Of a stretch of DNA of 64,000 nt, positions 17,301-33,872 are shown piece after piece. The DNA comes from Macrostomum lignano (lineage: Eukaryota), in contig NIVC01001463.1 in the NCBI GenBank assembly GCA_002269645.1, positions 220,863-284,862 on the forward strand. Reading direction: 5' to 3'. Positions within the stretch are counted from its first letter, which is position 1, and each line of letters opens with the position of its first letter. The position numbers and the translations under genes were made by a program. The notes beneath the pieces are model-generated. The model made no database searches. It saw nothing but the letters and a program-made list of their open reading frames with translations, and had not been told where the DNA came from.

Positions 17301-19960
17301 TTCTCCGCTACTTACCCGCACTCTGTGCAGACTCTAGCCGGCAGCTACCTGGCCCAGGACTACTTGTTTTTAAGCATCGGCCGGGTTGGCAAGCCCAGTC
17401 CCGACGTGACCCAGGAGGTGCGCGAAGTGTCTCAGGGCGACAAGGTCGCCACTTTGTTAGCTTTGCTAGCAGAATTTCGCGACCTAGAGCCTAACGGATT
17501 TGGCGAGCGAAAAGTTTTGGTGTTTGTCGAACGAAAGGAGACGGCCAACCTGATTGGCATGCTGCTGTGCGACAAGGGCTTTGAGGTGAGCCATTGAGCG
17601 GAGGGACACCTGTCACTCGCATGTCTGCTGTGTCTCTGCTTGTCTGTCACTCGCATGTCTGCTGTGTCTCTGCTTGTCTGTCACTCGCGTATCTACTGCG
17701 TCACTGCTTGTCTGTCACTCGCGTATCTACTGCGTCACTGCTTGTCTGTCACTCGCGTATCTACTGTGTGTCTGCTTGTCTGTCACTCACATGTCCGCTG
17801 TGTCACTGCTTGTCTGTCACTCGCATGTCTACTGTGTCATTGCTTGTCTGTCACTCGCGTATCTACTGCGTCACTGCTTGTCTGTCACTCGCGTATCTAC
17901 TGTGTCTCTGCTTGTCTGTCACTCGCATGTCTACTGTGTCATTGCTTGTCTGTCACTCGCGTATCTACTGCGTCACTGCTTGTCTGTCACTCGCGTATCT
18001 ACTGCGTCACTGCTTGTCTGTCACTCGCGTATCTACTGCGTCACTGCTTGTCTGTCACTCGCGTATCTACTGCGTCACTGCTTGTCTGTCACTCGCGTAT
18101 CTACTGCGTCACTTCTTGTCTGTCACTCGCGTATCTACTGTGTCTCTGCTTGTCTGTCACTCGCGTATCTACTGTGTGTCTGCTTGTCTGTCACTCACAT
18201 GTCCGCTGTGTCACTGCTTGTCTGTCACTCGAATGTCTACTGTGTGTCTGCTTGTTTACTGTAGTCTCAGATATACTAGAATAAGTTATTCTAGTATCTG
18301 TGGTTGTAGGTAAGGAAAGGGCCTGAGTCACAGCTTCAAATCATGACGAAAATTGATCCGCAGCCAGTGAAGAAGGCAAATCAGTCATATTTTTATGCCT
18401 ATTTTTCTGACCATTGAGCACGCCATCAAGTCAGGGCTGCTGTGCACCCTGAGTCAGCGCGCGCGTGCTCAGGGGTCATCAGAATGGGTAATGACTGCTT
18501 GCGGCTGCAGTTTTCGACCAATTGTGAAGCTTCGATCCAGTATTGGAATTTAGGCGTTTATTAATATGATGATATCAGCCTCTATTTGGTTAATCTATGA
18601 GTGCACCTGTACTGATCGATTGCTTCGTATTCAACTAGGCCACCAATAATCACGGCGACCGGCCGCCAGCCGAGCGTCAGCGGGCCTTCTCCGAGTTCCG
18701 CAGCGGCACCACACCGGTGATGGTGACTACTAATATGATGTCCCGCGGCATCGACATCTCAGGCATATCGCTGGTGATTAATTACGACTTGCCGCAGGAT
18801 GACTCCAGCTATGTGCACAGGATTGGCCGGACTGGGCGCTGCGGCAATCTGGGCAGGTGAGGCTATCGTGAGCTTTGTTGCGCTAATCCACCAGCATAGC
18901 ATCTGTTGCGCTAATCCACCAGCATAGCATCTGTTGCGCTAATCCACCAGCATCTGCTGTGCTAATCCACCAGCATCTGCTGTGCTAATCCACCAGCATC
19001 TGTTGCGCTAATCCACCAGCATCTGCTGTGCTAATCCACCAGCATCTGTTGCGCTAATCCACCAGCATAGCATCTGTTGCGCTAATCCACCAGCATAGCA
19101 TCTGTTGCGCTAATCCACCAGCATAGCATCTGTTGCGCTAATCCACCAGCATAGCATCTGCTGTGCTAATCCACCAGCATCTGCTGTGCTAATCCACCAG
19201 CATCTGTTGCGCTAATCCACCAGCATCTGCTGTGCTAATCCACCAGCATCTGTTGCGCTAATCCACCAGCATAGCATCTGTTGCGCTAATCCACCAGCAT
19301 AGCATCTGTTGCGCTAATCCACCAGCATAGCATCTGTTGCGCTAATCCACCAGCATAGCATCTGCTGTGCTAATCCACCAGCATCTGCTGTGCTAATCCA
19401 CCAGCATCTGCTGTGCTAATCCACCAGCATCTGCTGTGCTAATCCACCAGCATCTGCTGTGCTAATCCACCAGCATCTGCTGCGCTAATCCACCAGCATA
19501 GCATCTGCTGTGCTAATCCACCAGCATCTGCTGCGCTAATCCACCAGCATTCTTAAGCTCGATCTCACAGCCTTCCTAAGAGTAGTTCCAAGGCATTATT
19601 GAGTCAACTCCGCAACTATGTGTAACAAAATCCTCAACGACACTATGTTAATCTCCATCCCCCAGATCCATCAGCTTCTTCGATCCCAACGCAGACGGGC
19701 CGTTAGCTCACCAGCTGGTCGGCAATCTCCGCAGTGCCCAACAGCCGGTGCCCGAATGGCTTGAGACAATCGCCGAACGCGAAGGCTGCTCGGGCAACGG
19801 CTACGGCGGCCGCGGCCGCGGACGCGGCGAGTATCGCGACATTCGACGCGGCATCGGTCGCACCGTCGAAATCATCGACGACAGTTTCGGCCTGGGCGAC
19901 GGCGGCGGAGCTTTCCAGCCAAGGCCGGCCGATGTGCCGAACGAGGACGACTGGTCGTGA
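14318..19960 (+). CDS. vasa: Vasa/DDX4-like DEAD-box RNA helicase, 5 exons, 744 aa
   Basis: Exons 14318-15148, 15650-15970, 17016-17585, 18639-18856, 19666-19960; all GT-AG, phases compatible, total 2235 nt. Gly/RGG-rich N-terminus with 5 CCHC knuckles; [31 protein letters not shown] motifs; acidic Trp C-terminus EDDWS. Confidence 0.9.
15277..15530 (-). mobile_element. tRNA-derived SINE (family B, CORE-like) in vasa intron 1
   Basis: Minus-strand tRNA head (TGGTTAGAGCG..GGTTCGATTCC) then GTGTCCTTGAGCAAGAC and CAACTGTAAAATGGGTGCCAGC; homologous to 53638-53903 and 62712-62850. Confidence 0.8.
16180..16530 (+). mobile_element. Internally deleted mariner transposon remnant in vasa intron 2
   Basis: Encodes WVPRE (mariner WVPHEL motif) joined closely to [20 protein letters not shown] (mariner C-terminal KL..RW.KC...G.Y motif); ends only approximately defined. 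Confidence 0.6.
16535..16799. mobile_element. Degenerate MITE
   Basis: Left end TAGTGGCGATCTAG vs reverse complement of right end CAGGGGCGGATTTAG; internal short direct repeat. Confidence 0.4.
17608..18258. repeat. 34-bp minisatellite in vasa intron 3
   Basis: Unit CTGCTTGTCTGTCACTCGCGTATCTACTGCGTCA. Confidence 0.95.
18872..19550. repeat. 23/28-bp minisatellite in vasa intron 4
   Basis: Units TGTTGCGCTAATCCACCAGCATC with or without an extra TAGCA. Confidence 0.95.
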
Positions 19961-20379
19961 GCCAGACTGGGGCGCCTCTTGATCGTTAAGAGGACAGTGC
20001 AGTCCTGTTGATTCGGCTCATTAATCACTGGACTCATTTTCATAAAATTTGCCAATTTTTTTAGAAGTCGGAAAACAAACTTTGAACTGCTAGTAATAGC
20101 CATCCGTGTTCGGTTTCTCTTGTCGTTTCTTGTTTATTTTCGTGTATTTGCTTCATGGGTGCTGGTGTGTTAATTATATTTAGTCATATTTTTATAGTTT
20201 ATAGTAATTATTAATAATAGGACATCAAATTTTGTTCTTCAACGCTTTTTTTCAAAACTTTATGCGTCATGTCTGGATTTTTAAATGTTGTTTTACGAAA
20301 ATAGTTCATCTATTTCTCATTTGTAGCTAACATACTTTAGTTGTCTGGTATATGCCAGCGCGGTTAAACTTCCCAATTT

Positions 20380-21262
20380 CCGTATAAAAGTGTGACAGTC
20401 ACATTTTGAATTTGTGATCTGTTTTGTGACCATCAAAAAATGGTATCAAATTTGACCCTCCATTGTGACCCTCTGATGTGACCGTCAAATGAACGGTCTC
20501 TCATGTGACCCTCCAATGTGACCGTCAAATAAACGGTCTCTCTTGTGACCCTCCAATGTGACCGTCAAATAAACGGTCTCTCTTGTGACCCTCCAATGTG
20601 ACCGTCCTATAAACGATCTCTCGTGAGACCCTCCAATGTGACCGTCAAATAAACGGTCTCTCATGTGACCCTCCAATGTGACCGTCAAATAAACGGTCTC
20701 TCATGTGACCCTCCAATGTGACCGTCAAATAAACGGTCTCTCATGTGACCCTCCAATGTGACCGTCAAATAAACGGTCTCTCATGTGACCCTCCAATGTG
20801 ACCGTCCTATAAACGATCTCTCGTGAGACCCTCCAATGTGACCGTCAAATAAACGATCTCTCGTGAGACCCTCCAATGTGACCGTCAAATAAACGGTCTC
20901 TCATGTGACCCTCCAATGTGACCGTCAAATAAACGGTCTCTCTTGTGACCCTCCAATGTGACCGTCAAATAAACGGTCTCTCATGTGACCCTCCAATGTG
21001 ACCGTCAAATAAACGGTCTCTCATGTGACCCTCCAATGTGACCGTCAAATAAACGGTCTCTCATGTGACCCTCCAATGTGACCGTCAAATAAACGGTCTC
21101 TCATGTGACCCTCCAATGTGACCGTCAAAGAAACGGCCGCTCATGTGACCGATCAATGTGACCCAAAAATGTGACAAGCAGTGTTACATTTTGATGTGAC
21201 AAGCAGTGACACATTTTTTACTGTCACTAAAAAATTGTGACCGTCCCACTTTTATGCGGGCT
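20380..21262. mobile_element. TIR element carrying an internal 40-bp minisatellite
   Basis: CCGTATAAAAGTGTGACAGTCACA at left vs reverse complement CCCGCATAAAAGTGGGACGGTCACA at right; interior is about 17 copies of GTGACCCTCCAATGTGACCGTCAAATAAACGGTCTCTCAT. Confidence 0.6.
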
Positions 21263-22134
21263 TGCCAAGCTTGAGAGCTTTGAAAAATCCAAATTCTGTG
21301 TTGTCAGCTTTTCCAACTTATTCGAATTTTCATCTAATAAACACGATTCTCTGAGTAAAGGTACTATTAGTAGAATATTTAGCCACAAAGACTGGTCTCA
21401 TTTATATCAGTTTTGCACCTCATTGGCTGGCTGGAAGTGCCTATAAAAAGCTAAGATTCCGTACGTAAAACACATTGTGTACCAGACTACTTATGAAAGC
21501 TTAAGCTGAAGTTTGCATTTTCTGTGCAGCATTTTTTCACCCTCGCATGCGCGCTGTTTCTTATCTCAACAATATATATTATATGACATTTTGCTATCCG
21601 GTTCTGCAGATGGCAAAGGCCTGATTGAACATCTCTGAAGTAATACATTTCTTTATTTGGAATTGTTGTCTTAATCCTTTATTACTTTGTATGTACTTTC
21701 ACCACTTGTACTCGTAGTTTATTGATCTATATCCAGTCGTTAGGGCCCACCAAGTCAGGTATATTCAAGCAGTTCCAATCTTTGAGTGTATCGCTATTGA
21801 GTCTAATGTATCACTACTGAATCTAATGTATCAATATTTAGTCTAATGTATCACTACCGAGTCTAATGTATCACTACTGAGCCTAATGTATCAATATTGA
21901 GTCTAATGTATCACTACCGAGACTAATGTATCACTACTGAGTCTTATGTATTGCATCGGTTTGCGCGAGCCCGCGAGGGCTAACCGCTGTTAGTGCAAGG
22001 GGGGCTGTTTGGGTGCTGGCTGTATGGTGGGGTGGTGGGTGCGTTGTGCGTGCGCGTGCCTATTTAGGCCGCCACCTTTGTGGCTGCGCGGGGTTGCTAG
22101 CGGTTGAATTTTTTAATTTTTTTTTTGCTGAATC

Positions 22135-23226
22135 ATGGCAGATAGCCTTGTACTGCCCGCAACTAACAAAGCGCTACGAGAAGCCCTTAGTGAGCGCGGC
22201 CTGCCTACTAATGGCAATAAGCAAGAGCTAACAAGTCGTCTAAAACTCAGCATTGCCAAGGAGCTTGAGCGGCAGGCGTTGGAGCAGGACAGAGGCTCAT
22301 CTCGTCGTGCTCAAGATGACAAGACATCACCGACGAATGCGGGCGCACCCGAGCTAAGTCTGGCTCCACCTGAGGACGAGATGCTACCGGCGGTGGGCGC
22401 CTTGGCCGAGGGTCGGGCGGCGACGGGAGGCGGTCTCGAGGATCAGCTGCGAGAGACTGAACTGCGCATTCGGCTGCTGGACCTGAAAAAAAGAGAGGCT
22501 CAGCTCGAAGCCGAGCTCGCTGAAGCGCGTCACAGTGGCACGGCGGCTGCGAGAGAACGTGATCAGACTCCCGGTGAGTGGCATGATTTGGTTGGCGAGT
22601 GTATACTCGGGCAGGCTGGGGCTGCAATTTCGCATGCTCAGGCGCCGGCGGTGTACAGAGTCGTTGATTTTATCAGTGAGCGTAAGCGGAGACAAGGAAG
22701 CCAGTCTGTTGTGGGAGCGGCAAAGCCAGAGAGGTTGAAACACGTCAGTCCCGAGTCACTGTCGTTTGGCGATTTCATCTCCGGTAGCTGTAACTTACTG
22801 GTGCAAATGCTGCGTGATGGCAAACTGCTGCACATTGTTGATGGCAGAATCGATTCATCCGAGTTGATCGATCATCTCCGACATAACGCTAGAATTGGTG
22901 ACCTGCTAGATTTAGGCTTCGATCGCATTAAAGTCATGAGATATGATGACGAATGTCGGCTTCTCCAGCATGATGGAACGCGGTGGAGCGCTGTTAGCGC
23001 AGACCTGGGTCTGGTGGCAACACACTTGATGGCACCGACAAAAATGATAAATGCAACAGCGCCTAGAAAGCGAACGCAGCCACCTGTCTGTTTCGACTTC
23101 AACAGTCTTAGCGGCTGCAACAGAACTCACTGCCGCTTCGCCCATCAGTGCCGCAGGTGCTCACAGCCGCACTCTGAAGCCCGAGCCCACGCTGATGGGG
23201 ACCCGGGCCAACTTTCAAAAAACTAG
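22135..23226 (+). CDS. Ngaro-1 Gag-like protein (SAP domain, coiled coil, C-terminal CCCH/zinc-finger cluster)
   Basis: NKALREALSERGLPTNGNKQELTSRL is SAP-like; CFDFNSLSGCNRTHCRFAHQCRRCSQPH; colinear with the Gag of element 2. Confidence 0.8.
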   Translation: MADSLVLPATNKALREALSERGLPTNGNKQELTSRLKLSIAKELERQALEQDRGSSRRAQDDKTSPTNAGAPELSLAPPEDEMLPAVGALAEGRAATGGGLEDQLRETELRIRLLDLKKREAQLEAELAEARHSGTAAARERDQTPGEWHDLVGECILGQAGAAISHAQAPAVYRVVDFISERKRRQGSQSVVGAAKPERLKHVSPESLSFGDFISGSCNLLVQMLRDGKLLHIVDGRIDSSELIDHLRHNARIGDLLDLGFDRIKVMRYDDECRLLQHDGTRWSAVSADLGLVATHLMAPTKMINATAPRKRTQPPVCFDFNSLSGCNRTHCRFAHQCRRCSQPHSEARAHADGDPGQLSKN

Positions 23227-23277
23227 CGTGCGAGGTGGGGGCACAGGACTCAATGTCTGCCGCCGGGTCACCCTCCT

Positions 23278-25109
23278 GTGCCCCCACGGGGGAGCTCTGA
23301 CCCGAGTTCAACTGAGTTGTCGAGCGACCTTGTGTTTGCGGTTTGGCGGGAAGAGCTGGCTGGGACCGAGATGCCGGAGGACCGTGTCAGGTTTGTGCTC
23401 GATGGTGTGAAGAATGGCTTTCGAATTACTAATAAAGTTATGGATTGTAAGAACCACACTGAGATGGCAAATCACAGATCAGCTACCATTCACCAGCAAG
23501 CTGTTGAGGCCCAGGTGCGCCAGGAGCTCAAGCAGGACCGCTACAGGCGCTGCCAGACAGGCAACCGGCCGCTCATCGTTAGTGCACTTGGTGCGATCCC
23601 TAAGGCGGATTCGTCTTCCATCCGCCTTATTCACGACTGCAGCCTGCCAACTGGCGCCTCTGTGAATGATTTCTTTGAGTCGAAACGGAAGTTGCGTTTT
23701 ACTTCGGCCAGCAACTTTGCCTCGAAGCTGTACAGCGGCGCGTACATGTGCAAAGTGGATCTGTCGCAAGCATATCGTTCATGTGGTGTGCACCCTGATG
23801 ACCACCGGGTCACAGGCATGAAGATTCAGCTCCAAGGCGAGGGCCAGCCAGTGTACCTGTACGACACGTTTGGTGCTTCGGCTTCCGTATTCTGCTTTTA
23901 CGAGCTGAGCCAAGCTGTGCGTTTTATGATGTTGAAGCATGGTTTCTACGCTATGGAGGCCTACATGGATGACTTCGCCTTTTGTGGAGATCTGGAGTCC
24001 TGCTGGAAGTTCTACAACCTTCTCATCGATCTGCTCGAGCGGCTAGGCTTCACCGTAGCAAGTGTGTTCCGCCGACAACGCGGATGACCTTTCTGGGCAT
24101 TTTATTTGATAGCGTGGCAGGCCAGATGTCTCTTCCTGCCGAAAAAGTCCAAGACTTGTTGCATGTTTTATCCCTCTGCTCTTCGAAGAAAAGGCTGTCA
24201 AAGTCGTGTTTGCAGAAGTTGATCGGCAAGTTAAACTGGGCGTCGCAAGTTGTTCGGCACGGGAGAGTTTTCCTCCGACCTCTTATCGACATTGTTAACA
24301 AGCTGCATCGGCCTCATGACAGGGTTCTTGTTAGTCCCTCCGTGGTGCACCAACTCTCCTGGTGGCGGTTGGCTTTGCAACATCGCATCGGTGTTGACCT
24401 GTGGACTTCGCCGAGGGCTTGTGTTGCCATAGAGACTGACTCGTCGTCTTCAGGCGCCGCGGCGGTGCTCCGTGATGGTGATGGGATTCGTGATTGGTGC
24501 TTTATTGACTGGCAGATCGACGCAAATGGTGTTTTTCAGAATTACTGCATCAATTACAAGGAGGCTGTGGTTATATTGCTGGCTGTTTTGAGATGGGGCC
24601 AATCCTTGGCTGGTTGTCGGCTTGCTGTGTACTGCGACAATGAGACGGCGTGTTGGATTCTAAGGCGAGGTGTCTCCAAGGACTCGCGTCTGATGTGGTT
24701 GCTGCAGTCTGTGGCGTTGCTCTGTCTGCGTTTTGACGTTGAATTTGAGGTCTTTCACGTTCCTGGTGCCTATCAGCTGTTTGCTGATGCAGGGTCCCGC
24801 CTGCACTCGCGTCATGAGTTGCTTAACTTTATTTTCCGTGTTTACGGGTCTGTGCCAGTTTGTCCTGTGGAGTTTTCGAATCACGCGTTTTCTGTTTTTG
24901 CCTCCCGTTTTTTATTTTCACAGGCCGCCTCCCTGCAACGCCGACCCTCGGCGCCGCCGCCTCCAGCCTCCTCGCCGCAGCATACGCACCGCAGTCACGC
25001 AGGGCGATCTCATCGGCCGTCCGGTCCTGGCACAGCTTCTGCAACGAGAACGGGACCAACCCGGCTCGATCCGACCGGTCGGTGCTACTCAACTACCTGG
25101 CTCACCTAG
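23278..25109 (+). pseudogene. Ngaro-1 RT-RNase H, frameshifted
   Basis: KVDLSQAYR, FGAS, YMDDF, then a frame switch near 24057 (GFTV / SKCVPPTTRMTFLG); RNase H IETDSS, INYKEA, YCDNET, HVPG; RLP missing before FG relative to element 2. Confidence 0.85.
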
Positions 25110-26211
25110 TCGAATGCCGCCTGAGATCGTTCAACAGTCTGCGTGTCCATGTCAGTGCACTGTCCAGCTGGTTCAAAGCCTGTGGTGCTGAGGACCTAAC
25201 AAAACACCACCTGGTCTCACTGCTCGTTCGCGGCGCTAAACGGAGGATGGGCCAGCGACCAAGACGGAAGCTGCCGATTTCGCCTGCGATGCTGCTGTCT
25301 GTGAAAAACCGGCCTAACTCGAGCAGTTCGCTTGACAGAGTCTGCTGGCTTGTGACGCTTATTGCTTGGTGGGGGATGTTTCGGCGCTCCAGTCTCCTGC
25401 CCAGTCAGCAGTCCGCTTCACCGATCTCCGTCTCAGCCTTTCAACGCCACCCGAAGGGGGTTGTGCTCTCTGTCAGTTATGGCAAGACGAATCAGTTCGG
25501 CGCGAAGCTGCACCGGGTGTTGCTTCCAAGGCTAAAAGATGGACATCCGCTTTGCCCAGTGGCTGCGCTAGAGGGTCACCTCCGTGTCAGCAAGCTTGGC
25601 TGCAGGCAGCCTGTGTTCTCCTACCAGTTGGCGAGCGGATCCTCTGTTGTCCTGTCTGCCTCAAGATTCGACAAGTACCTCAAGCGCTGCCTAGCAACTG
25701 CTGAGCAGGACGCTCGTTCTTTCTCAGCGCACAGCCTGCGCAGAGGTGGTGCCACCTGGGCCTACCGTCTCGGACTATCTGTTTGTGATAAATAGGCAAT
25801 TAGATAATAGCATGCACGGTAAGCAATTATTTAGGCCCTAGACAAACCTACTTGGAGCGTTCGGAGATTTTAAAGCTATTAATCCTAATCGCCTATCGCC
25901 GGTCGGCGAGTTCTACCAGTCTTCTCCAATAGCCGCAGGTACAGTACAAGAAAATAAAGAACACGAGGGAACACAACCGAAAGATTTAGAGAGTGATAAT
26001 GCCTCCATTTCTCTTAGGCTCTTTTGTGAGCCTGGAGTGAAATGGGTGTTAGCCATCCACCCCTCGCGCTGTACTTTGTGCCGCCTTTGTGCTCCGTCCT
26101 CTCTACCCCCCGTGGGGTGGGGGGGGGGTTTGCTCACCCGCTTATTTATTTGCACGCCGCCCTCTGTGCCCCGTCGCTCGCTTTGGCTTTGCAGCTCAAA
26201 ATTTTACCATT

Positions 26212-27276
26212 ATGGAAAGTGCACGCAATTTTACAACTAAACAGCTCAAACAAGAGCTAGCTCAGCGAGGCCTCTCACAAGCTGGTCGTAAACAACAACT
26301 CTATGAGCGTCTACACAGACACCTGCGTGCTATGTCTGAGTATCCAGCTGCAGCAAAAAGTGACGACGCAAGCCTCAACTCAGACACCATCGACGGTGGA
26401 CATTCGACGGGTGGACACGGAGCTTCAGGGAGCGCGGCGAGCGACCTGGCGGCTCTGAGGAAGGAGGTCGAGCAGCTGGAGATTGAAGCCCTGACTCGGC
26501 GCCGCGCACAACTGCAAAGCGAGCTCAATCAGTCGCAGAACCACCGGTCTCAGGAACCCCCACAACAAGGTGAGCGGAGAGAAAATGCTGGCTTGCATGA
26601 GGCGTTTTTGTTAGGCGGCGCTCTTACAGATCCCGGCAGAAGCCAGTGTGACAAAAAGACTAGCAGGGCTTATCTGATTCGCGATTTTGTCAAGCCCAGT
26701 TCAAATCAACCTAATGAGAGCCTCACAGCCTGCATGGAGAACGGGAACCTGGTCTTTAAGAAGCAGCCACCCAGCTTGGGGAAAATCTCTGTCGGCCAGT
26801 GGATTGCAGGGAACTCTAAGATTTTGCTTCGACTAGTTGATGATGGGTCGCTGATTCACATTAATGAGGATGGATCTGTCAATGTTGACGAACTAAAAGG
26901 CTATCTGGAGTACTCACAGAAGATCGGCGAGCTCTTAGACGCTAACTACAGCCCAAGTGTCGTGTGGGAATTCGATGAGGATTACAGAAAGTTGATCGCC
27001 GACTCGGATTCGCATCGATGGGGCTGCGAGCCTCCACAGCTGTACCACCGACACCTTAACGCACCAAGAAGCTTAAAAGTCACCCTAAGCAGACCAGCAT
27101 CCAACCAGTCGCAAGCTCCCATCTGCCTAAGCTACAACTCCCCTGCCGGCTGCCAGCGGTCCTCCTGTAGGTACCGTCACGTCTGCAAGCTGCGCGACTG
27201 CGGCCGGCCGCACCCCGCACACCAGCACCGTCCGGCCAGCGTCGGCGGCGACGCTGTGGAGGGAGCAAAAAACTAG
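26212..27276 (+). CDS. Ngaro-2 Gag-like protein (SAP, coiled coil, CCCH cluster)
   Basis: ATG directly after A1; TKQLKQELAQRGLSQAGRKQQLYERL is SAP-like; CLSYNSPAGCQRSSCRYRHVCKLRDCGRPH. Confidence 0.85.
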   Translation: MESARNFTTKQLKQELAQRGLSQAGRKQQLYERLHRHLRAMSEYPAAAKSDDASLNSDTIDGGHSTGGHGASGSAASDLAALRKEVEQLEIEALTRRRAQLQSELNQSQNHRSQEPPQQGERRENAGLHEAFLLGGALTDPGRSQCDKKTSRAYLIRDFVKPSSNQPNESLTACMENGNLVFKKQPPSLGKISVGQWIAGNSKILLRLVDDGSLIHINEDGSVNVDELKGYLEYSQKIGELLDANYSPSVVWEFDEDYRKLIADSDSHRWGCEPPQLYHRHLNAPRSLKVTLSRPASNQSQAPICLSYNSPAGCQRSSCRYRHVCKLRDCGRPHPAHQHRPASVGGDAVEGAKN

Positions 27277-29033
27277 ATCTTTTTTATAGCCGCCCTGCTT
27301 TTAACCCCCGTTCGCCTTTACCTTTTATCTTGCCTCCATCTGCTCATTGCCCTGCTCGCACCCTGCTCTCTCCACCGCGCCGCGCTCTGTCGTCCGACAT
27401 GAACCTTGCCGCCTGGGAGCCGCTGCTTCTGGGTGACCAAGACGAAGATTTTCTTCGCAGCGGCCTTAGCTACGGCTTTCGGCTCATCAATAGATCGCCG
27501 CCTTTTCTTGCCCGCTCCGCCAACTACCGATCGGCCTTGGACCAAGCCAAGCAGGTTGGTGAACAGCTCGCCAAGGAGCTCCGTCTCGGCCGCTTGCAGC
27601 TCGCCAATGGCCCTGTCATGGTGAACGCCATCGGGGCGATTCCAAAATCTGACGGCAGTGTCCGGGTCATTCATGACCTTTCTAGACCTTCGGGGTCCTC
27701 CGTCAACGACAGCTATGAGCAGGAAAAGGGGCTGCGCTTCGCCTCTGTCCAAGACCTGACCCGCTATCTTCGCCCAAACTCGTTTATCGGCAAAATCGAC
27801 CTCAAGCAGGCCTATCGTTCCGTCGGTATTCACCCTGACGACCAGGTGCTCACGGGCCTCAGCTGGCGGTTCTCTGCCGACAGCGATGACTCGGTGCTCG
27901 TTGACACTCGGTTGCCCTTTGGTGCTCGAGCGTCATGTGAGATTTTCCATCGCTTATCGGCCTGCATCAAGCGCCACATGTTCAGCATTGGCTTCACAGC
28001 TACCGTCAACTACTTGGACGACTGGGCAGTCGCCGGTGATACTGAAGAAGCGGCTCAGGAGGCCTTCAATTATCTGGTTGATCTGCTGCAGAACTTAGGC
28101 TTCGACATCAACTGGCAGAAGACCGTGGCTCCAGCTCAACACGTTGTGTTTCTCGGCGTGCTGGTTGACACTGTGAACGGCACCCTGTCACTTCCAAGCA
28201 ACAAGAAAGACGACATTCGGAAACTGCTGAACGATTGCCTGTCATGTGACGTTGTTAAACTGAAGCAGCTCGAAAAACTGGCCGGTAAGTTGTGCTGGCT
28301 CAGCCAGATCAACAGGCTGTTGCGTCCTTTCCTGCGCCCGCTCTTCGACATCCTCAGCTGCAGAATGGACACCCGGCTGCCATCTGAGCTTCGCAACCTC
28401 TTCCTCTGGTGGCTGCGCGTCGTGAGTTCTCTGCCGCCGACGGTCATTCGCCCCCGTTTTCGTCAACTTGTGGCCATCGAATCTGATAGCAGTTGCGAGG
28501 GTGCTGCTGGCATCGTCTTTGGCAGCGAATTCAGTGACTGGACGTACTTCAGCTGGGAGAAGGACTTTGAGAGCAAGTTCCGCGACCTTCACATCAACCA
28601 CAAGGAGGCGCTGGCTCCGCTGCTTACCATCCTGCGCTTCCGCGAGCAGCTTAGGAACAGCCGCGTGGTGATTTACTCGGACAGCACTGCTGCCGTCGGC
28701 ATGGTCAATAAGCTTTCCTGTCGGCATCCTCTGCTCATTCGCATCTATCAGACCGTTGCTCTCGTGTGCCTCACGTCGGGAATTCAGCTCCAGGCGTTCC
28801 ACCTTCCTGGCCAGATGCAGCTGCTGAGCGACTCCGCTTCTAGAATGGGGGGCTCGAGCAGAGAGCTCATTAATTTTTGCTGCCGTCTTTACGGCTCTTT
28901 ATGCATTTGTCCTTTCGAATTTGCTTCCCACACCATTTCTGCCGTGTCTCGCACCGCTCTTCATTCGCAGGTCGCAGCCGCGCTCCGCTCCGCTCCACCG
29001 TGTCTGTGTCCGCTCTGTGCCGCCTGTCACTAG
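27273..29033 (+). CDS. Ngaro-2 reverse transcriptase-RNase H (in -1 frame to gag)
   Basis: KIDLKQAYR, RLPFGARAS, YLDDW, VFLG; RNase H IESDSS, HINHKEA, IYSDST, HLPG..LSDSASR; open frame with no stops from the gag end. Confidence 0.92.
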   Translation, partial: LDLFYSRPAFNPRSPLPFILPPSAHCPARTLLSPPRRALSSDMNLAAWEPLLLGDQDEDFLRSGLSYGFRLINRSPPFLARSANYRSALDQAKQVGEQLAKELRLGRLQLANGPVMVNAIGAIPKSDGSVRVIHDLSRPSGSSVNDSYEQEKGLRFASVQDLTRYLRPNSFIGKIDLKQAYRSVGIHPDDQVLTGLSWRFSADSDDSVLVDTRLPFGARASCEIFHRLSACIKRHMFSIGFTATVNYLDDWAVAGDTEEAAQEAFNYLVDLLQNLGFDINWQKTVAPAQHVVFLGVLVDTVNGTLSLPSNKKDDIRKLLNDCLSCDVVKLKQLEKLAGKLCWLSQINRLLRPFLRPLFDILSCRMDTRLPSELRNLFLWWLRVVSSLPPTVIRPRFRQLVAIESDSSCEGAAGIVFGSEFSDWTYFSWEKDFESKFRDLHINHKEALAPLLTILRFREQLRNSRVVIYSDSTAAVGMVNKLSCRHPLLIRIYQTVALVCLTSGIQLQAFHLPGQMQLLSDSASRMGGSSRELINFCCRLYGSLCICPFEFASHTISAVSRTALHSQVAAALRSAPPCLCPLCAACH

Positions 29034-29965
29034 CGCCTAGTTCCAGGAAGTCCTATGCGAGCCGCTTACAAGTCTGGAACGAATTCTGCCGGCAGCGTCG
29101 AGTTCCCGCGACCGCCGCCTCCGAGTCTGATGTCTGCCAATTTGTCTCGTTCCTGTTACAACGTGGACCGGCGTCCTACTCCAGTGTGCAGTCAAGCCTC
29201 AGCGCGGTGTCTTACCTACATAGGGCTTCCGCGTCACCAGACCCGACCAAGGGCAGCGCTCGCCTGGCTCTCGTGTGTCGCGGGGCTCGGCGTCTTCTGA
29301 GCCGGCAGCCTCGGCGTGCGACGCCGCTGAAGCCCAGCCACCTCCGCCTGCTTTGCAGCTCCACCGAGCTACGTCATTCGCTGCCGCCCCGTCTGCTGGC
29401 CGCCTTCAAGGCAGCATTGCTGGTGGCCTGGTGGGGAGTCCTTAGGCTCGGCGAGCTCTTACCATCCACCGCTGCGGACGCTCTTCCCCGGAGCTGCCTA
29501 TCAGCGTGCCCCGGTGGTCTGCGGCTGGTGCTCAACAGGTCAAAGACAAACCAATTCAAGGAGCGGCAACTGGAATTATTTCTGCCGCAGGCCTCTGAAT
29601 GCCTGCTTATCTGTCCCGCTTCCGCACTAGCAACTCATCTGCGCGAGAATCAAATCTACGGACCGCAGCAGCCCCTGTTTTCTGTCCTAGGCAGCCGCGG
29701 CCGGACTTTCTTGTCTGCCGCTATGTTCATCCGGCTCCTAAAGCGGGGCATGTCTATGTGCGGCTTTGGCGAGTGCGGCTTCTCGGGTCACAGTCTGCGT
29801 AGAGGCGGGGCCAGCGCTGCCTTTCAGTCAGGCCTCTCAATCGCCGACATCCGTTGCATGGGCGACTGGCGTTCAGACTGCGTCTTTCGGTATTTCTCTG
29901 ATGAGGCGTCGTTTGCCCGCCGTCGGGCAGCAGCTCGGCAGGTCGCTGCCGGCCTGGCCTCTTGA
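28971..29965 (+). CDS. Ngaro-2 tyrosine recombinase (predicted second exon)
   Basis: Catalytic set present: R (GVLRLGEL), K (RSKTNQ), HxxR (GHSLRRGG), W and Y (GDWRSDCVFRY). Confidence 0.92.
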
Positions 29966-31953
29966 CTGCTTACTCGCTCGTTTTATTGACCCTTTGGCGT
30001 TTTACCTTGGCGTTCGTGGCCTGGCTTCGCTTACTTTTGCTGCCTCCTTGTTTTTATCTTCCTGTTCTCTCCTTTTCTCCTCCTTTTTTTCGGGGTTGGG
30101 GTCGCTTTCCCCACCTCTCGCGCTGCTTCGGGCCATAAGCCTTTGCCTGCCTGCTGTTCGTCTCTTTCGCTGTTGGGGTGTGATTGGTTAATGCCTCCAT
30201 TTCTCTTAGGCTCTTTTGTGAGCCTGGAGTGAAATGGGTGTTAGCCATCCACCCCTCGCGCTGTACTTTGTGCCGCCTTTGTGCTCCGTCCTCTCTACCC
30301 CCCGTGGGGTGGGGGGGGGTTTGCTCACCCGCTTATTTATTTGCACGCCGCCCTCTGTGCCCCGTCGCTCGCTTTGGCTTTGCAGCTCAAAATTATTTTT
30401 AAGCACATTCTTTTTCTTTTAATCTCGTTTGCTTGCAAAATAAACTTATCGTTACTACGGGGTCGCTTTCCCCACCTCTCGCGCTGCTTCGGGCCATAAG
30501 CCTTTGCCTGCCTGCTGTTCGTCTCTTTCGCTGTTGGGGTGTGATTGGTTAATCCTATTTCAAGAATAGCTAACTTGATTGACGGTTTAATTTGATTAGC
30601 TGAGTTACAAGATTTAGACAAACGGCGCAGATAACTAGAGTTGACAAAACGACAATAACGGTTAATAAATAATGATTATATACGCACTGACAAGCGGATC
30701 TCAGCTGAAGAAGAAGGAGGCACCGAACACAGGACCACGGAGAAGACTCCTAACCCCTGGCCTAAACCAGAACCTACTCTCAAACGAGAGCCCTGCCGAA
30801 CCGACCGTTCAACGGAGTACCGACTAAGTTCTATCGGCACTGCCCTTCAGTGTAACACTGGGGACCTCGGGGTCGAGGCCGCGTACTTGATCAGATCCGA
30901 CAGTCTCTATCTAACCGCGCTTGATAGCGACGACTTCAGACAGGAATTTGCCGTAGACGTTACGCCACAAGACTACTGCGGTTGGGCGGGAACAAAGATA
31001 TGGACCGGGGGTGATGAAATCAAACGCCTCAAAGCGCGAACCAACAAGAGGAGGAAAATCGGGCCACCGGCCGGGAACTGGACAAGACAAACCGGGGAAA
31101 AGGAGCAAGCGAGATCCGATTGCCAAAACACACTTTCATATATAGTCAGAGTCACAACCCCTCAAAACTCCCCTCAAGCCGGGTGGTGGTCGTCTGGCCG
31201 GCCGCACGATAAGCCGAATTGAACTGTGCCCGCGGCGCCGGGTAGAACTGAAACTTGCCGCGTGCCAGGGTCCAGGCCGGTTCTGATTGGCTGACCGCGC
31301 AAAGCTGGGGTTCGCAGACAAACTCAACCCTCCGCTGAGTCACAAATTTGGCGTCTAACTCTAACCTGTTTACAATTTTAGATTTCAACCAACTAGAAAA
31401 AGTACACAAAAAACGCATGACTAAACAAGCAAAATAACAATTCAATAACAATATAGAAACTAATGCAGTCAATTTACAACAAAATACACGCAAAGATGCT
31501 CACACTACATGTTCAAGAGGTGAAGTGCATCGGTGACTGGCGAAGTGATGCTGTTACTGCCTACCTTCCATCTGCTGATTCTGTGCGGGCTGGTTCGCGT
31601 TTTGCTGGTGCTTTTAGCGAGAGCTGCCTTTGAATAACTTTTGCTTGTGTTCAAAGTTTTATTTCCGTTCTTATCCCCAGCCTTATTTCCGCCGTTTCGT
31701 AAATTCTCTCCTTCGTTCAGTCATTTGTTTGTTTGGCCTTGGGGTTGCATCCTCTGGCTTTTCGCTGCCTCGCCATCGCCACACTCGGTTTGTCTTTGTC
31801 TTTGTCTTTGCCTCCCCTTCACTAACACTGCCGAGACTAATGTATCACTACTGAGTCTTATGTTTCACTACCGAGTCTAATGTATCACTACTGAGTCTAA
31901 TGTATCAATATTGAGTCTAATTTATCACCACCGAGACTAATGTATCACTACTG

Positions 31954-33872
31954 CCCGCCTGGCTGTCGTAATCCGGTTTTCATCCGGCCTCGTCCGGTTT
32001 AACCCGTTTTAGGGGGGTGTTTCCGGACCAAAAAGATGTTGATCCGGTTTTGATCCGGTTTTTTTTCCGGACCAAAAACCGGGCCGAAATCCGGAGTAAA
32101 GCCGGATGAAAGAGTTCTCTTTGTGACTCTTTTTATCCGGTTTTTGATCCGGTTGACTCGTCGATTAAACTCGAACAATCAGCCGGATTGAAAACCGGAT
32201 GAAAACCGGAAGAAAGCATATTTTGGTCCGGAATTTCGTCCGGTTTTACATCCGTCCATTGACCCGCCGAAAGCCGGATAAAGACCGATGCACGAAACGG
32301 AAGAAGTCCGGATGAAATACCGAGTTCAGAAAGGGGACTTGGATTTTTTATGAGTATGTAATTTGCAAGACCGCGTTGAGTTGTTATTAGGTAAAGAAAT
32401 ATGTAATGAGTGACCAGTGTGACCACTGCTGTTTTATGTGTTTTTCTGTGCTTTTTTAAAATAGCTGTGTTATTGTGTTTTTTTAAGAAGTCATCCCTTT
32501 TCTGTGTTGAACCTAAATAAACAGCCCCCGCTAGCGCGATCTTTGACCTGGCCAGAACTGTCTTCGCAGAGGTTGGGCCCACAAGTCAGCGTCCGGCCGG
32601 CGATGTGGACATTGCGGAAGATATGCTACTTTCCCTGATGGGATAGTATAGGCTATATAGTCGTGGGCCAGTCGTTTTGTCGCAGACTATAGGATATAAG
32701 AGGGAGCCGTGTGCCATTGCCAGTGGCCGCGGCGTGGCGCGAATATGCTCATGACACTACTGCTTCTGCGACTGCAACTTACTATTGGTCACGAATCAAA
32801 TATGTAGCGCCTAGGGGTCTTAAGAGCATGTGCTCGATTAGACAGTAGCATATCATGAGGACAAAAATTCCTCAAAAATTCTGCAGTATGTAAAGTGCAC
32901 GATGTACCCATCGCCTGCAATCTGTACATCATGGTGGGTTTTTTAGAACAGTAACGTTACTTAACGTTACTAACGTGTACAGTAATCACTGTTCTGCTGA
33001 TAGGTAATATCGCCCTCGGGTCTGCGTTTCTGGTTTTCTGTTGACACTTTCTGTTTCACTCCCAGTATGGAAAAATGTATATGTCGCTATTTTTTCTGTT
33101 GTCCCCAATTTTATAAGTGAGTTTTTTTTCTGCGCCTGTTTCTTCGTGTAGCTGGAAGTTTTTCTTCTGTGAAATTTCTAGTTTTTCTGCCTGGTACTAA
33201 TTTGTAGCCGCCCAAAAGACAATGTGTCGTCTGATTCTCCATTTCTCCTGATTTGTCCACCCAATGTGAGGTTTTGCCATTCTATTTTTGACTCAAGCAT
33301 GTCTTGTGTATTTGCATTTTTAGCGACACGCAACTTTAACAATTATCTTCGGTTTCAATATATTCAGCTTCCACTACTCTATCCAGCACAGTGAATTAGA
33401 GGTTGGCCACCCTCTGTGCAAGTGCAATATACCTTGCTTTCTTTGAGGTGTTTCCAGCAATTTGTTTTCTTACGTTTTCAAAAGATTTCGTCTTGTTGTC
33501 AACCTTACTTGGTTCTTTAACATGTCATCTGCTTTACCATCCGGTAGACATGTGCATACATTTGATCCGGCATTCATCCGGAATTTCGTCCGGTTTCTCA
33601 TCCGGTAGACATGTGCATACATTTCGTCCGGATTCGCTCCGGAATTTGCTCCGCCCTGTTCTCCGCGGCTTTCCGGATAGCTTCCCGGATGAATTTCCGG
33701 ACTAATGTTGGTTGAACACCCGGATGAAAGGTCAAATATGCATGTTTTCATCCGGTTTGTAAACTTTTCATCCGGCTCTCATCCGGTTTTTAAATGGGAC
33801 ATTTTTATTACGTACCGGATGAAATTCCGGACGTCGCTCCGGATGAAAACCGGATTACGACAGCCAGGCGGG
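31954..33872. mobile_element. Non-autonomous CMC/EnSpm-like DNA transposon
   Basis: Perfect 34-bp TIR CCCGCCTGGCTGTCGTAATCCGGTTTTCATCCGG; 2-bp TG duplication (31952-53, 33873-74); dense subterminal ATCCGG/CCGGAT repeats at both ends; no transposase seen. Confidence 0.85.

Follow-up and report, generated by a model that had tools for sequence, protein, structure and literature searches.

A conserved A_AAA_AAC heptamer at the gag stop of Ngaro-like retrotransposons in Macrostomum lignano: probable −1 frameshifting to Gag-Pol and a likely switch to stop-codon readthrough

How does a retrotransposon whose gag gene closes with a stop codon reach a polymerase that is encoded in another reading frame? 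The question is raised by two elements in a 64,000-nucleotide (nt) stretch of Macrostomum lignano DNA (assembly GCA_002269645.1, contig NIVC01001463.1, positions 220,863 to 284,862, forward strand), referred to here as the window and numbered from its first letter. Both are Ngaro-like tyrosine recombinase (YR) retrotransposons on the basis of their direct repeats (element 2), the order of their open reading frames (ORFs) and the absence of a methyltransferase, when set against published descriptions. Ngaro YR retrotransposons reportedly go back to Goodwin and Poulter in 2004. Element 2 (25997..30553) is complete and element 1 is a broken copy; all of their features given below lie on the + strand. 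In element 2 the gag gene (26212..27276; 354 amino acids, aa) is followed by pol, encoding reverse transcriptase (RT) and ribonuclease H (RNase H) (27273..29033; 586 codons after the shift), and then by YR.

The gag of element 2 runs into the heptamer A_AAA_AAC (27267..27273), which was assessed by motif match, register and conservation and is followed directly by the stop codon. The sequence AAAAAACTAG has two matches only in the window, at 27267-27276 and 23217-23226 (0.24 expected; 3 of 100 shuffles reach two), and these are the two gag ends, both reading xxA AAA AAC TAG. As an initial, sequence-only reading of the window (the first-pass annotation) had stated, the residue before Lys-Asn differs between the two, being Ala in element 2 and Ser in element 1. 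The RT/RNase H frame of element 2 is likewise −1 relative to gag and stop-free from 27273 to 29033, giving a predicted Gag-Pol of 354 + 586 = 940 aa.

The genome was searched by DNA and by RT protein; the protein searches scored 150 candidates out of 1663 and 150 out of 522. From the matches, 80 stretches were taken for coverage of apparent families, favoring long open RT frames. Close copies retained A6C in 14 of 18 cases for element 2, 10 of 11 for its sister subfamily and 16 of 17 for element 1. Of 83 loci examined, 16 had no zinc-finger anchor; in the 67 anchored loci, counted with near-identical copies included, gag ended in an in-register heptamer in 43, in TGA-CT in 18 and otherwise in 6. 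Pol was −1 and open into RT in 36 of the 43 heptamer loci, at stop-to-RT distances from 65 to over 800 nt. Tandem repeats that keep frame (PAAG-type and 11-residue units, for example) were observed in the gag-pol linker of L074-L078, L115, L094, L095, L100, L101 and L154-L159, stretching it to 400-800 nt, and L064 (C326) has an internal gag deletion and a single 849-codon open frame from gag into pol.

Retention of the heptamer among intact relatives, on which the first-pass annotation had made its proposal depend, was seen both in the close copies and across 15 representative families (RT identity 37-68%). In these families the Lys codon is AAA in 15/15, the preceding base is A in 15/15 (after Ala, Ser or Thr) and Asn is AAC in 14/15. 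The gag background is different, with AAA in 74 of 258 Lys codons and A ending 20% of GCN/TCN/ACN codons, and of 36 invariant degenerate RT columns not one has the same codon across all 15 families (14 at best). Codon and register are thus fixed while synonymous sites are scrambled, which argues for selection on the nucleotides and their register. The register X_XXY_YYZ is kept throughout, even in a family with the heptamer one codon ahead of the stop. A_AAA_AAC ranks among the most shift-prone heptamers (PMC5009743; this and the other papers cited are represented by the portions of their text that were available). From these comparisons of sequence we regard A_AAA_AAC as a conserved signal that is best explained by −1 frameshifting to Gag-Pol, with a probability of roughly 0.85. 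The majority of ribosomes would terminate at the gag stop and yield Gag, and a minority would slip back one base, with tRNA-Lys and tRNA-Asn on A_AAA_AAC, and continue into RT/RNase H, the product being a Gag-Pol fusion (in element 2, the predicted 940-aa protein).

Several observations weigh against this explanation. Seven of the 43 heptamer loci do not have pol in −1, among them L094 and L095 (identical RT), which are in frame 0 and open; we explain these two by a linker deletion relative to their sisters. Twenty further stretches, seven of them lacking RT or anchor, yielded the heptamer in 9 of 13, with pol in −1 in five and in other frames in four. A 16th family (L156, L158) carries the heptamer with no copy showing −1. 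The 15 representatives had been selected with a −1 requirement, and therefore the copy census alone tests the frame. No 3′ structure was predicted in element 2, L023, L061, L067, L071 or L117, and the 45 nt after the site folded at z < −2 in just 4 of 15 families. Frames were compared within this genome and relatives outside it by their protein ends. A profile search returned 6375 gag-like proteins; close gag relatives from metagenomes and Logan end in [ASP]-K-N in 8 of 10 cases, the other two falling within the readthrough clade described below. Among 124 distant gag-like proteins only 14 have KN in their last residues (0-5 in each of five upstream windows of equal size); five of the 14 group as one clade. 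Most distant gags therefore end otherwise, and the signal is not general.

The alternative that survives best, while still improbable, is that Pol has a start of its own at the ATG at 27399 or a nearby AUG, reached by reinitiation or on an RNA that is spliced, trans-spliced or begun internally, with the T-rich tract after the stop serving as acceptor or leader. Such a tract, TTTTTTATAG, does follow the gag stop of element 2, T-runs likewise stand upstream of most gag ATGs, and the elements probably use splicing for YR. In-frame ATGs occur at or before the RT start in 10 of 15 frameshift-type families, and a TGATG stop/start overlap is present in two; stop/start coupling through TGATG was rejected, being confined to those two. 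The first pol-frame ATG of element 2 (27399..27401), which the first-pass annotation had named as a possible start on a separate mRNA, behaves as an internal M/L position; it is not conserved as a start. Among 19 families, the matching codon reads ATG in 5 and CTC, CTT or CTA in 7, showing no start constraint, and a near-cognate start at this position was rejected on the same family comparison. In 5 of the 15 frameshift-type families the first in-frame ATG comes at codon 20, 41, 119, 132 or 194, beyond invariant Pol residues, and thus past codon 118 in three. No splice acceptor upstream of pol is common in position or phase across families; the AG at 27288-27289 is in phase 2, while the gag donor is in phase 1. 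None of the joints listed enters pol, and an X1 contig crosses 26746-27469 unbroken. Between the heptamer and ATG 27399, element 2 (L001) and L023 differ at 6, 9 and 18 sites in codon positions 1, 2 and 3 of the −1 frame, so that the linker changes like a putative coding sequence in that frame. A separate Pol would, moreover, leave the heptamer unexplained.

Less probable again is that the A6 run acts as a polymerase slippage site, with an extra A in transcription fusing gag and pol in a few RNAs. Viral polymerase slippage on GA6 is known, the run is unstable in the genome (A5 in 3/18 and A7 in 1/18 copies of element 2), and L096, with seven A, has a fused gag-pol ORF of 1036 codons. However, a constant codon register and a C behind the run, both of which are kept, are not required for polymerase slippage, and the run length stays at six A. 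L018, like L096, was observed to have seven A in the run. The weakest alternative, that Gag needs a C-terminal Lys-Asn or that the motif was inherited by chance and has no recoding role, appeals to the common ancestor of all families and to KN being the commonest C-terminal pair among 143 gag-like proteins (15), but is very unlikely given that selection on protein cannot fix AAA over AAG, or the preceding wobble A, amid scrambled synonymous sites, and that KN is lost exactly where pol shifts to frame 0.

Frameshifting, as the preferred explanation of the heptamer, does not extend to every relative. The first-pass annotation had proposed it as the route to Pol in the lineage; the proposal is supported for the heptamer families and fails for the lineage as a whole, because in one nested clade pol lies in frame 0 and is preceded by a single TGA. 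In four families plus L126, all without the heptamer, pol follows in frame 0 directly after CAY-TGA-CTN (representatives and sisters in this genome: L079, L123, L126, L127 and L134). Pol is open in frame 0 in 16 of the 18 TGA-CT loci. All five readthrough-type representatives have a stop-to-RT distance of 48 nt and a UGA-CU context, with G, A or C as the third base. In the RT and gag trees (all of them quick trees) the TGA-CTN loci form one clade, with Shimodaira-Hasegawa approximate likelihood ratio test (SH-aLRT) support of 96-98; this clade sits within a larger one that also holds element 1 and L122/L124. Monophyly of the frameshift type was rejected by the approximately unbiased test (p-AU 1.4e-10, with 16 distant gags as outgroup). 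UGA-CUA is known as the type II readthrough context (PMC3159437). Two points speak against recoding at these stops: the contexts are CTG, CTA and CTC and not one fixed triplet, and no 3′ structure was predicted within 180 nt. On balance, the nested clade likely reads through TGA-CTN. In this clade an in-frame TGA-CTN would have replaced the heptamer, and the same fusion would be made by stop-codon readthrough. A clean swap of signals at the junction is what would be expected if the Gag-Pol fusion is selected. Sister families of one genome that differ in this way, one frameshifting and the other reading through, would make it possible to see what persists when the recoding mode changes.

The copy of element 1 in the window also has RT in frame 0, with its −1 frame closed after 25 codons. 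Readthrough at this stop was ruled out because the frame results from a short deletion, shared with L045: the window copy is 8 nt shorter than its sisters just 3′ of the gag-pol junction, and nine sister copies (L032-L040) have pol in −1, open for 636-641 codons.

Structure around the heptamer was assessed by folding against shuffled sequences. The 8-bp stem that the first-pass annotation had pointed out upstream in element 2 (27237-27244 paired with 27249-27256; hairpin 27237..27256, ending 10 nt 5′ of the heptamer) is real, the 51-nt region beating 200 of 200 shuffles (z −3.8). The sister family L023 has a hairpin at an equal distance 5′ of the site with a different 5′ arm. Across families, mean z for the 45 nt preceding the site is −1.27, with 5 of 15 under −2, as against −0.36 to +0.31 in eight other windows; with nine windows tested, an excess of 5′ folding near the heptamer is only suggestive. 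In barley yellow dwarf virus a 5′ stem-loop affects frameshifting (PMC5009743). On the 3′ side, the first-pass annotation had seen no clear stimulator in element 2, and we likewise find no local 3′ structure in element 2, whose 147 nt downstream of the site are less stably folded than shuffles (z +2.3). Folding over a longer range of 300 nt gave no common helix in the six stem-less families. Stems beginning 5-8 nt 3′ of the site are present in L073, L089, L100 and L108. Element 1 has a candidate stimulator, a 14-bp stem 11 nt 3′ of the heptamer (23235-23248 with 23274-23287), which is not significant (z −1.24; equaled by 21 of 200 shuffles).

A further feature shared by the two junction types is a short T-rich motif. 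Element 2 carries three copies of TTTTA (27282..27327), at distances of 8, 25 and 49 nt counted from the first base of the gag stop. Sixteen of 19 families, with both junction types among them, have TTTTA in the 90 nt from the stop, compared with 0-4 of 19 in each of 26 other windows. The motif takes the form UUUUA(A/U)YYCC, is repeated and occurs in all three codon phases. A tentative and rather unlikely model combines three things: one transcript would yield three proteins along retrovirus-like lines (stop, recoding and splicing), −1 frameshifting would have given way to UGA readthrough once, and the UUUUA element common to both junction types would drive both kinds of recoding without 3′ structure, through a protein that binds it, perhaps the CCCH-type zinc finger of Gag. 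If true, binding of UUUUA by that finger would put the ratio of Gag to Gag-Pol under feedback control.

The third product, YR, likely comes from a spliced RNA. A phase-1 splice donor lies in gag of element 2 (26564..26576, exon end 26569), and a pyrimidine-rich CAG acceptor, also phase 1, lies at the start of YR homology (28955..28970), followed by the YR exon (28971..29965; Phage_int_SAM matches and phase check). The two sites are connected by a contig joint at 26567/28969 (GT..AG with the cut at +2). This joint from 26569 to 28971, with GT..AG, was found in runs X2, X5 and X6, which belong to three studies and consist of assembled contigs of presumed RNA. No genomic break at 26569 or 28971 was seen among the 15 + 20 best close matches. 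The joint is in frame, gag codons 1-119 and 330 YR codons making a predicted 450-aa SAP-coil-YR protein. In 17 of 18 gags the coil is closely followed by a phase-1 GTRAG donor (alignment columns 155-176); these 22 columns of 480 hold 17 of the 42 GTRAG sites. In 18 of 18 families with a YR start, the YR region begins at a pyrimidine-rich phase-1 YAG (read partly by eye). Two UniRef gene models, themselves predictions, agree: P0175, of the sister family, carries this joint too, and P0005 goes into YR at the acceptor predicted for element 1 (predicted splice 22573/24924). Counting against splicing, the joint is absent from run X1, one of the four runs, and contigs of element 1 cross both of its predicted sites unbroken. 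U_UUU_UUA at the RT/YR overlap of element 1 was considered as a second frameshift site and rejected; it is part of the pyrimidine tract of the acceptor, and element 2 has no such heptamer. A separate spliced RNA would therefore, on the joint in element 2 and the conserved sites elsewhere, attach the N-terminus of Gag (SAP and coil) to YR. The working recombinase is predicted to carry these Gag parts, which bears on packaging and targeting. Programmed frameshifts have been proposed for the Ngaro YR ORF (Poulter and Butler 2015, quoted in PMC13003380), a proposal with which a spliced YR conflicts, since YR here opens at a conserved splice acceptor and the splice joint was seen.

In other respects the elements resemble Ngaro, with the arrangement A1-[gag, RT/RNase H, YR]-B1 A2 B2, no methyltransferase, short ORF overlaps and the YR ORF in −1 relative to RT/RNase H (PMC8547959, PMC9210276, PMC4157794). 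The available portions of PMC8547959, PMC3783388, PMC6681497, PMC13003380, PMC9210276, PMC7192593 and PMC9341512 contain no gag-pol slippery site, readthrough or gag-YR splice for Ngaro, nor do those of PMC2632668, PMC13465315, PMC5009743, PMC3159437, PMC3266345, PMC4157794 and bioRxiv 10.1101/2022.06.16.496473; an earlier mention of the heptamer is possible. 'DIRS' is mentioned 0 times in the available part of PMC5009743. Retroviral and long terminal repeat (LTR) gag-pol junctions share the A_AAA_AAC heptamer and its register, a −1 pol and a predicted Gag-Pol fusion, and in animal LTR elements pol is in −1 in 28 of 51 (PMC5009743). In contrast to these, the elements here have neither a protease nor a DDE integrase, no 3′ stem or pseudoknot is evident in many families, and several have a 5′ hairpin and the UUUUA motif instead. 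The readthrough junctions are similar to type II (UGA-CUA/CGG; alphaviruses, tobraviruses) and gammaretroviral readthrough in having a single in-frame stop before the polymerase and UGA-CU, but differ from type II in that the triplet is CUG, CUA or CUC and arises within a frameshifting YR-element lineage. PAT-like and VIPER elements share split direct repeats and YR with the elements described here; PAT-like elements carry a methyltransferase, to which nothing here has a match. VIPER places YR ahead of RT/RNase H. Each mechanism is already known elsewhere; what is added is the switch, the spliced Gag-YR and the UUUUA element, together with natural A_AAA_AAC sites without predicted 3′ structure. 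DNA of relatives from outside this genome was sought in metagenomes, where 12 loci were recovered (9 inspected, resembling Gypsy-type LTR elements), and was found in none of the viral contigs, phage records or prokaryote genomes.

The assignment of element 2 rests on split direct repeats (A1 25997-26203, B1 30098-30192, A2 30189-30394, B2 30459-30553) and insertion at a TAAT core, TAAT being found at both ends and also at B1/A2; the empty-site joint 25996/30550 is present in 3 of 4 contig runs. Its Gag (SAP match at E=5e-10, and alignment) consists of SAP, a coiled-coil-like segment, a core, a C-terminal Cys/His zinc finger and the A-K-N-stop end. Pol matches RVT_1 (E=1e-11), and Phage_int_SAM matches mark the third ORF as a tyrosine recombinase. 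Both elements have the ORF order gag, RT/RNase H, YR on the same strand. A Pfam RNase H match was obtained for element 1 only, and no Pfam match to a methyltransferase after RNase H was found at E<=0.1 among the 7 proteins scanned. The closest named relatives of gag and YR are labeled Macrostomum lignano. Element 2 is nested in a repeat of much higher contig depth (25784-25996, 30554-30668), and the same repeat truncates element 1 at 25783. In element 1, gag (22135..23226, 363 aa, S-K-N-stop end; heptamer 23217-23223, predicted donor 22573/22574) is followed by a broken pol and YR (23227..25783, predicted acceptor 24923/24924), with small deletions near 23297, 23866 and 24051 and the end cut off at 25783.

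Some minor observations concern the surroundings of these genes. T-runs lie 10-40 nt 5′ of the gag ATG at 22110-22134 and 26190-26211 in the window and in most aligned gags, and GCTGA(A/G)TCATG is found near the gag ATG in several families of the element 1 clade. P0174, a gag of Ngaro-like lineage on a contig of 1280 bases, is labeled as a protein of a bacterial metagenome-assembled genome, a label that probably reflects eukaryotic contamination. The ORF piece at 19652-19960 is reminiscent of a DEAD-box helicase C-terminus with an RG-rich tail. An array of 40-nt units occupies 20344-21283, with inverted arms at 20380-20407 and 21232-21259. The stretch at 31954-33872 is rich in CCGGATGAAA-like units and is bounded by a perfect inverted repeat of 34 nt; it is possibly a non-autonomous DNA element.

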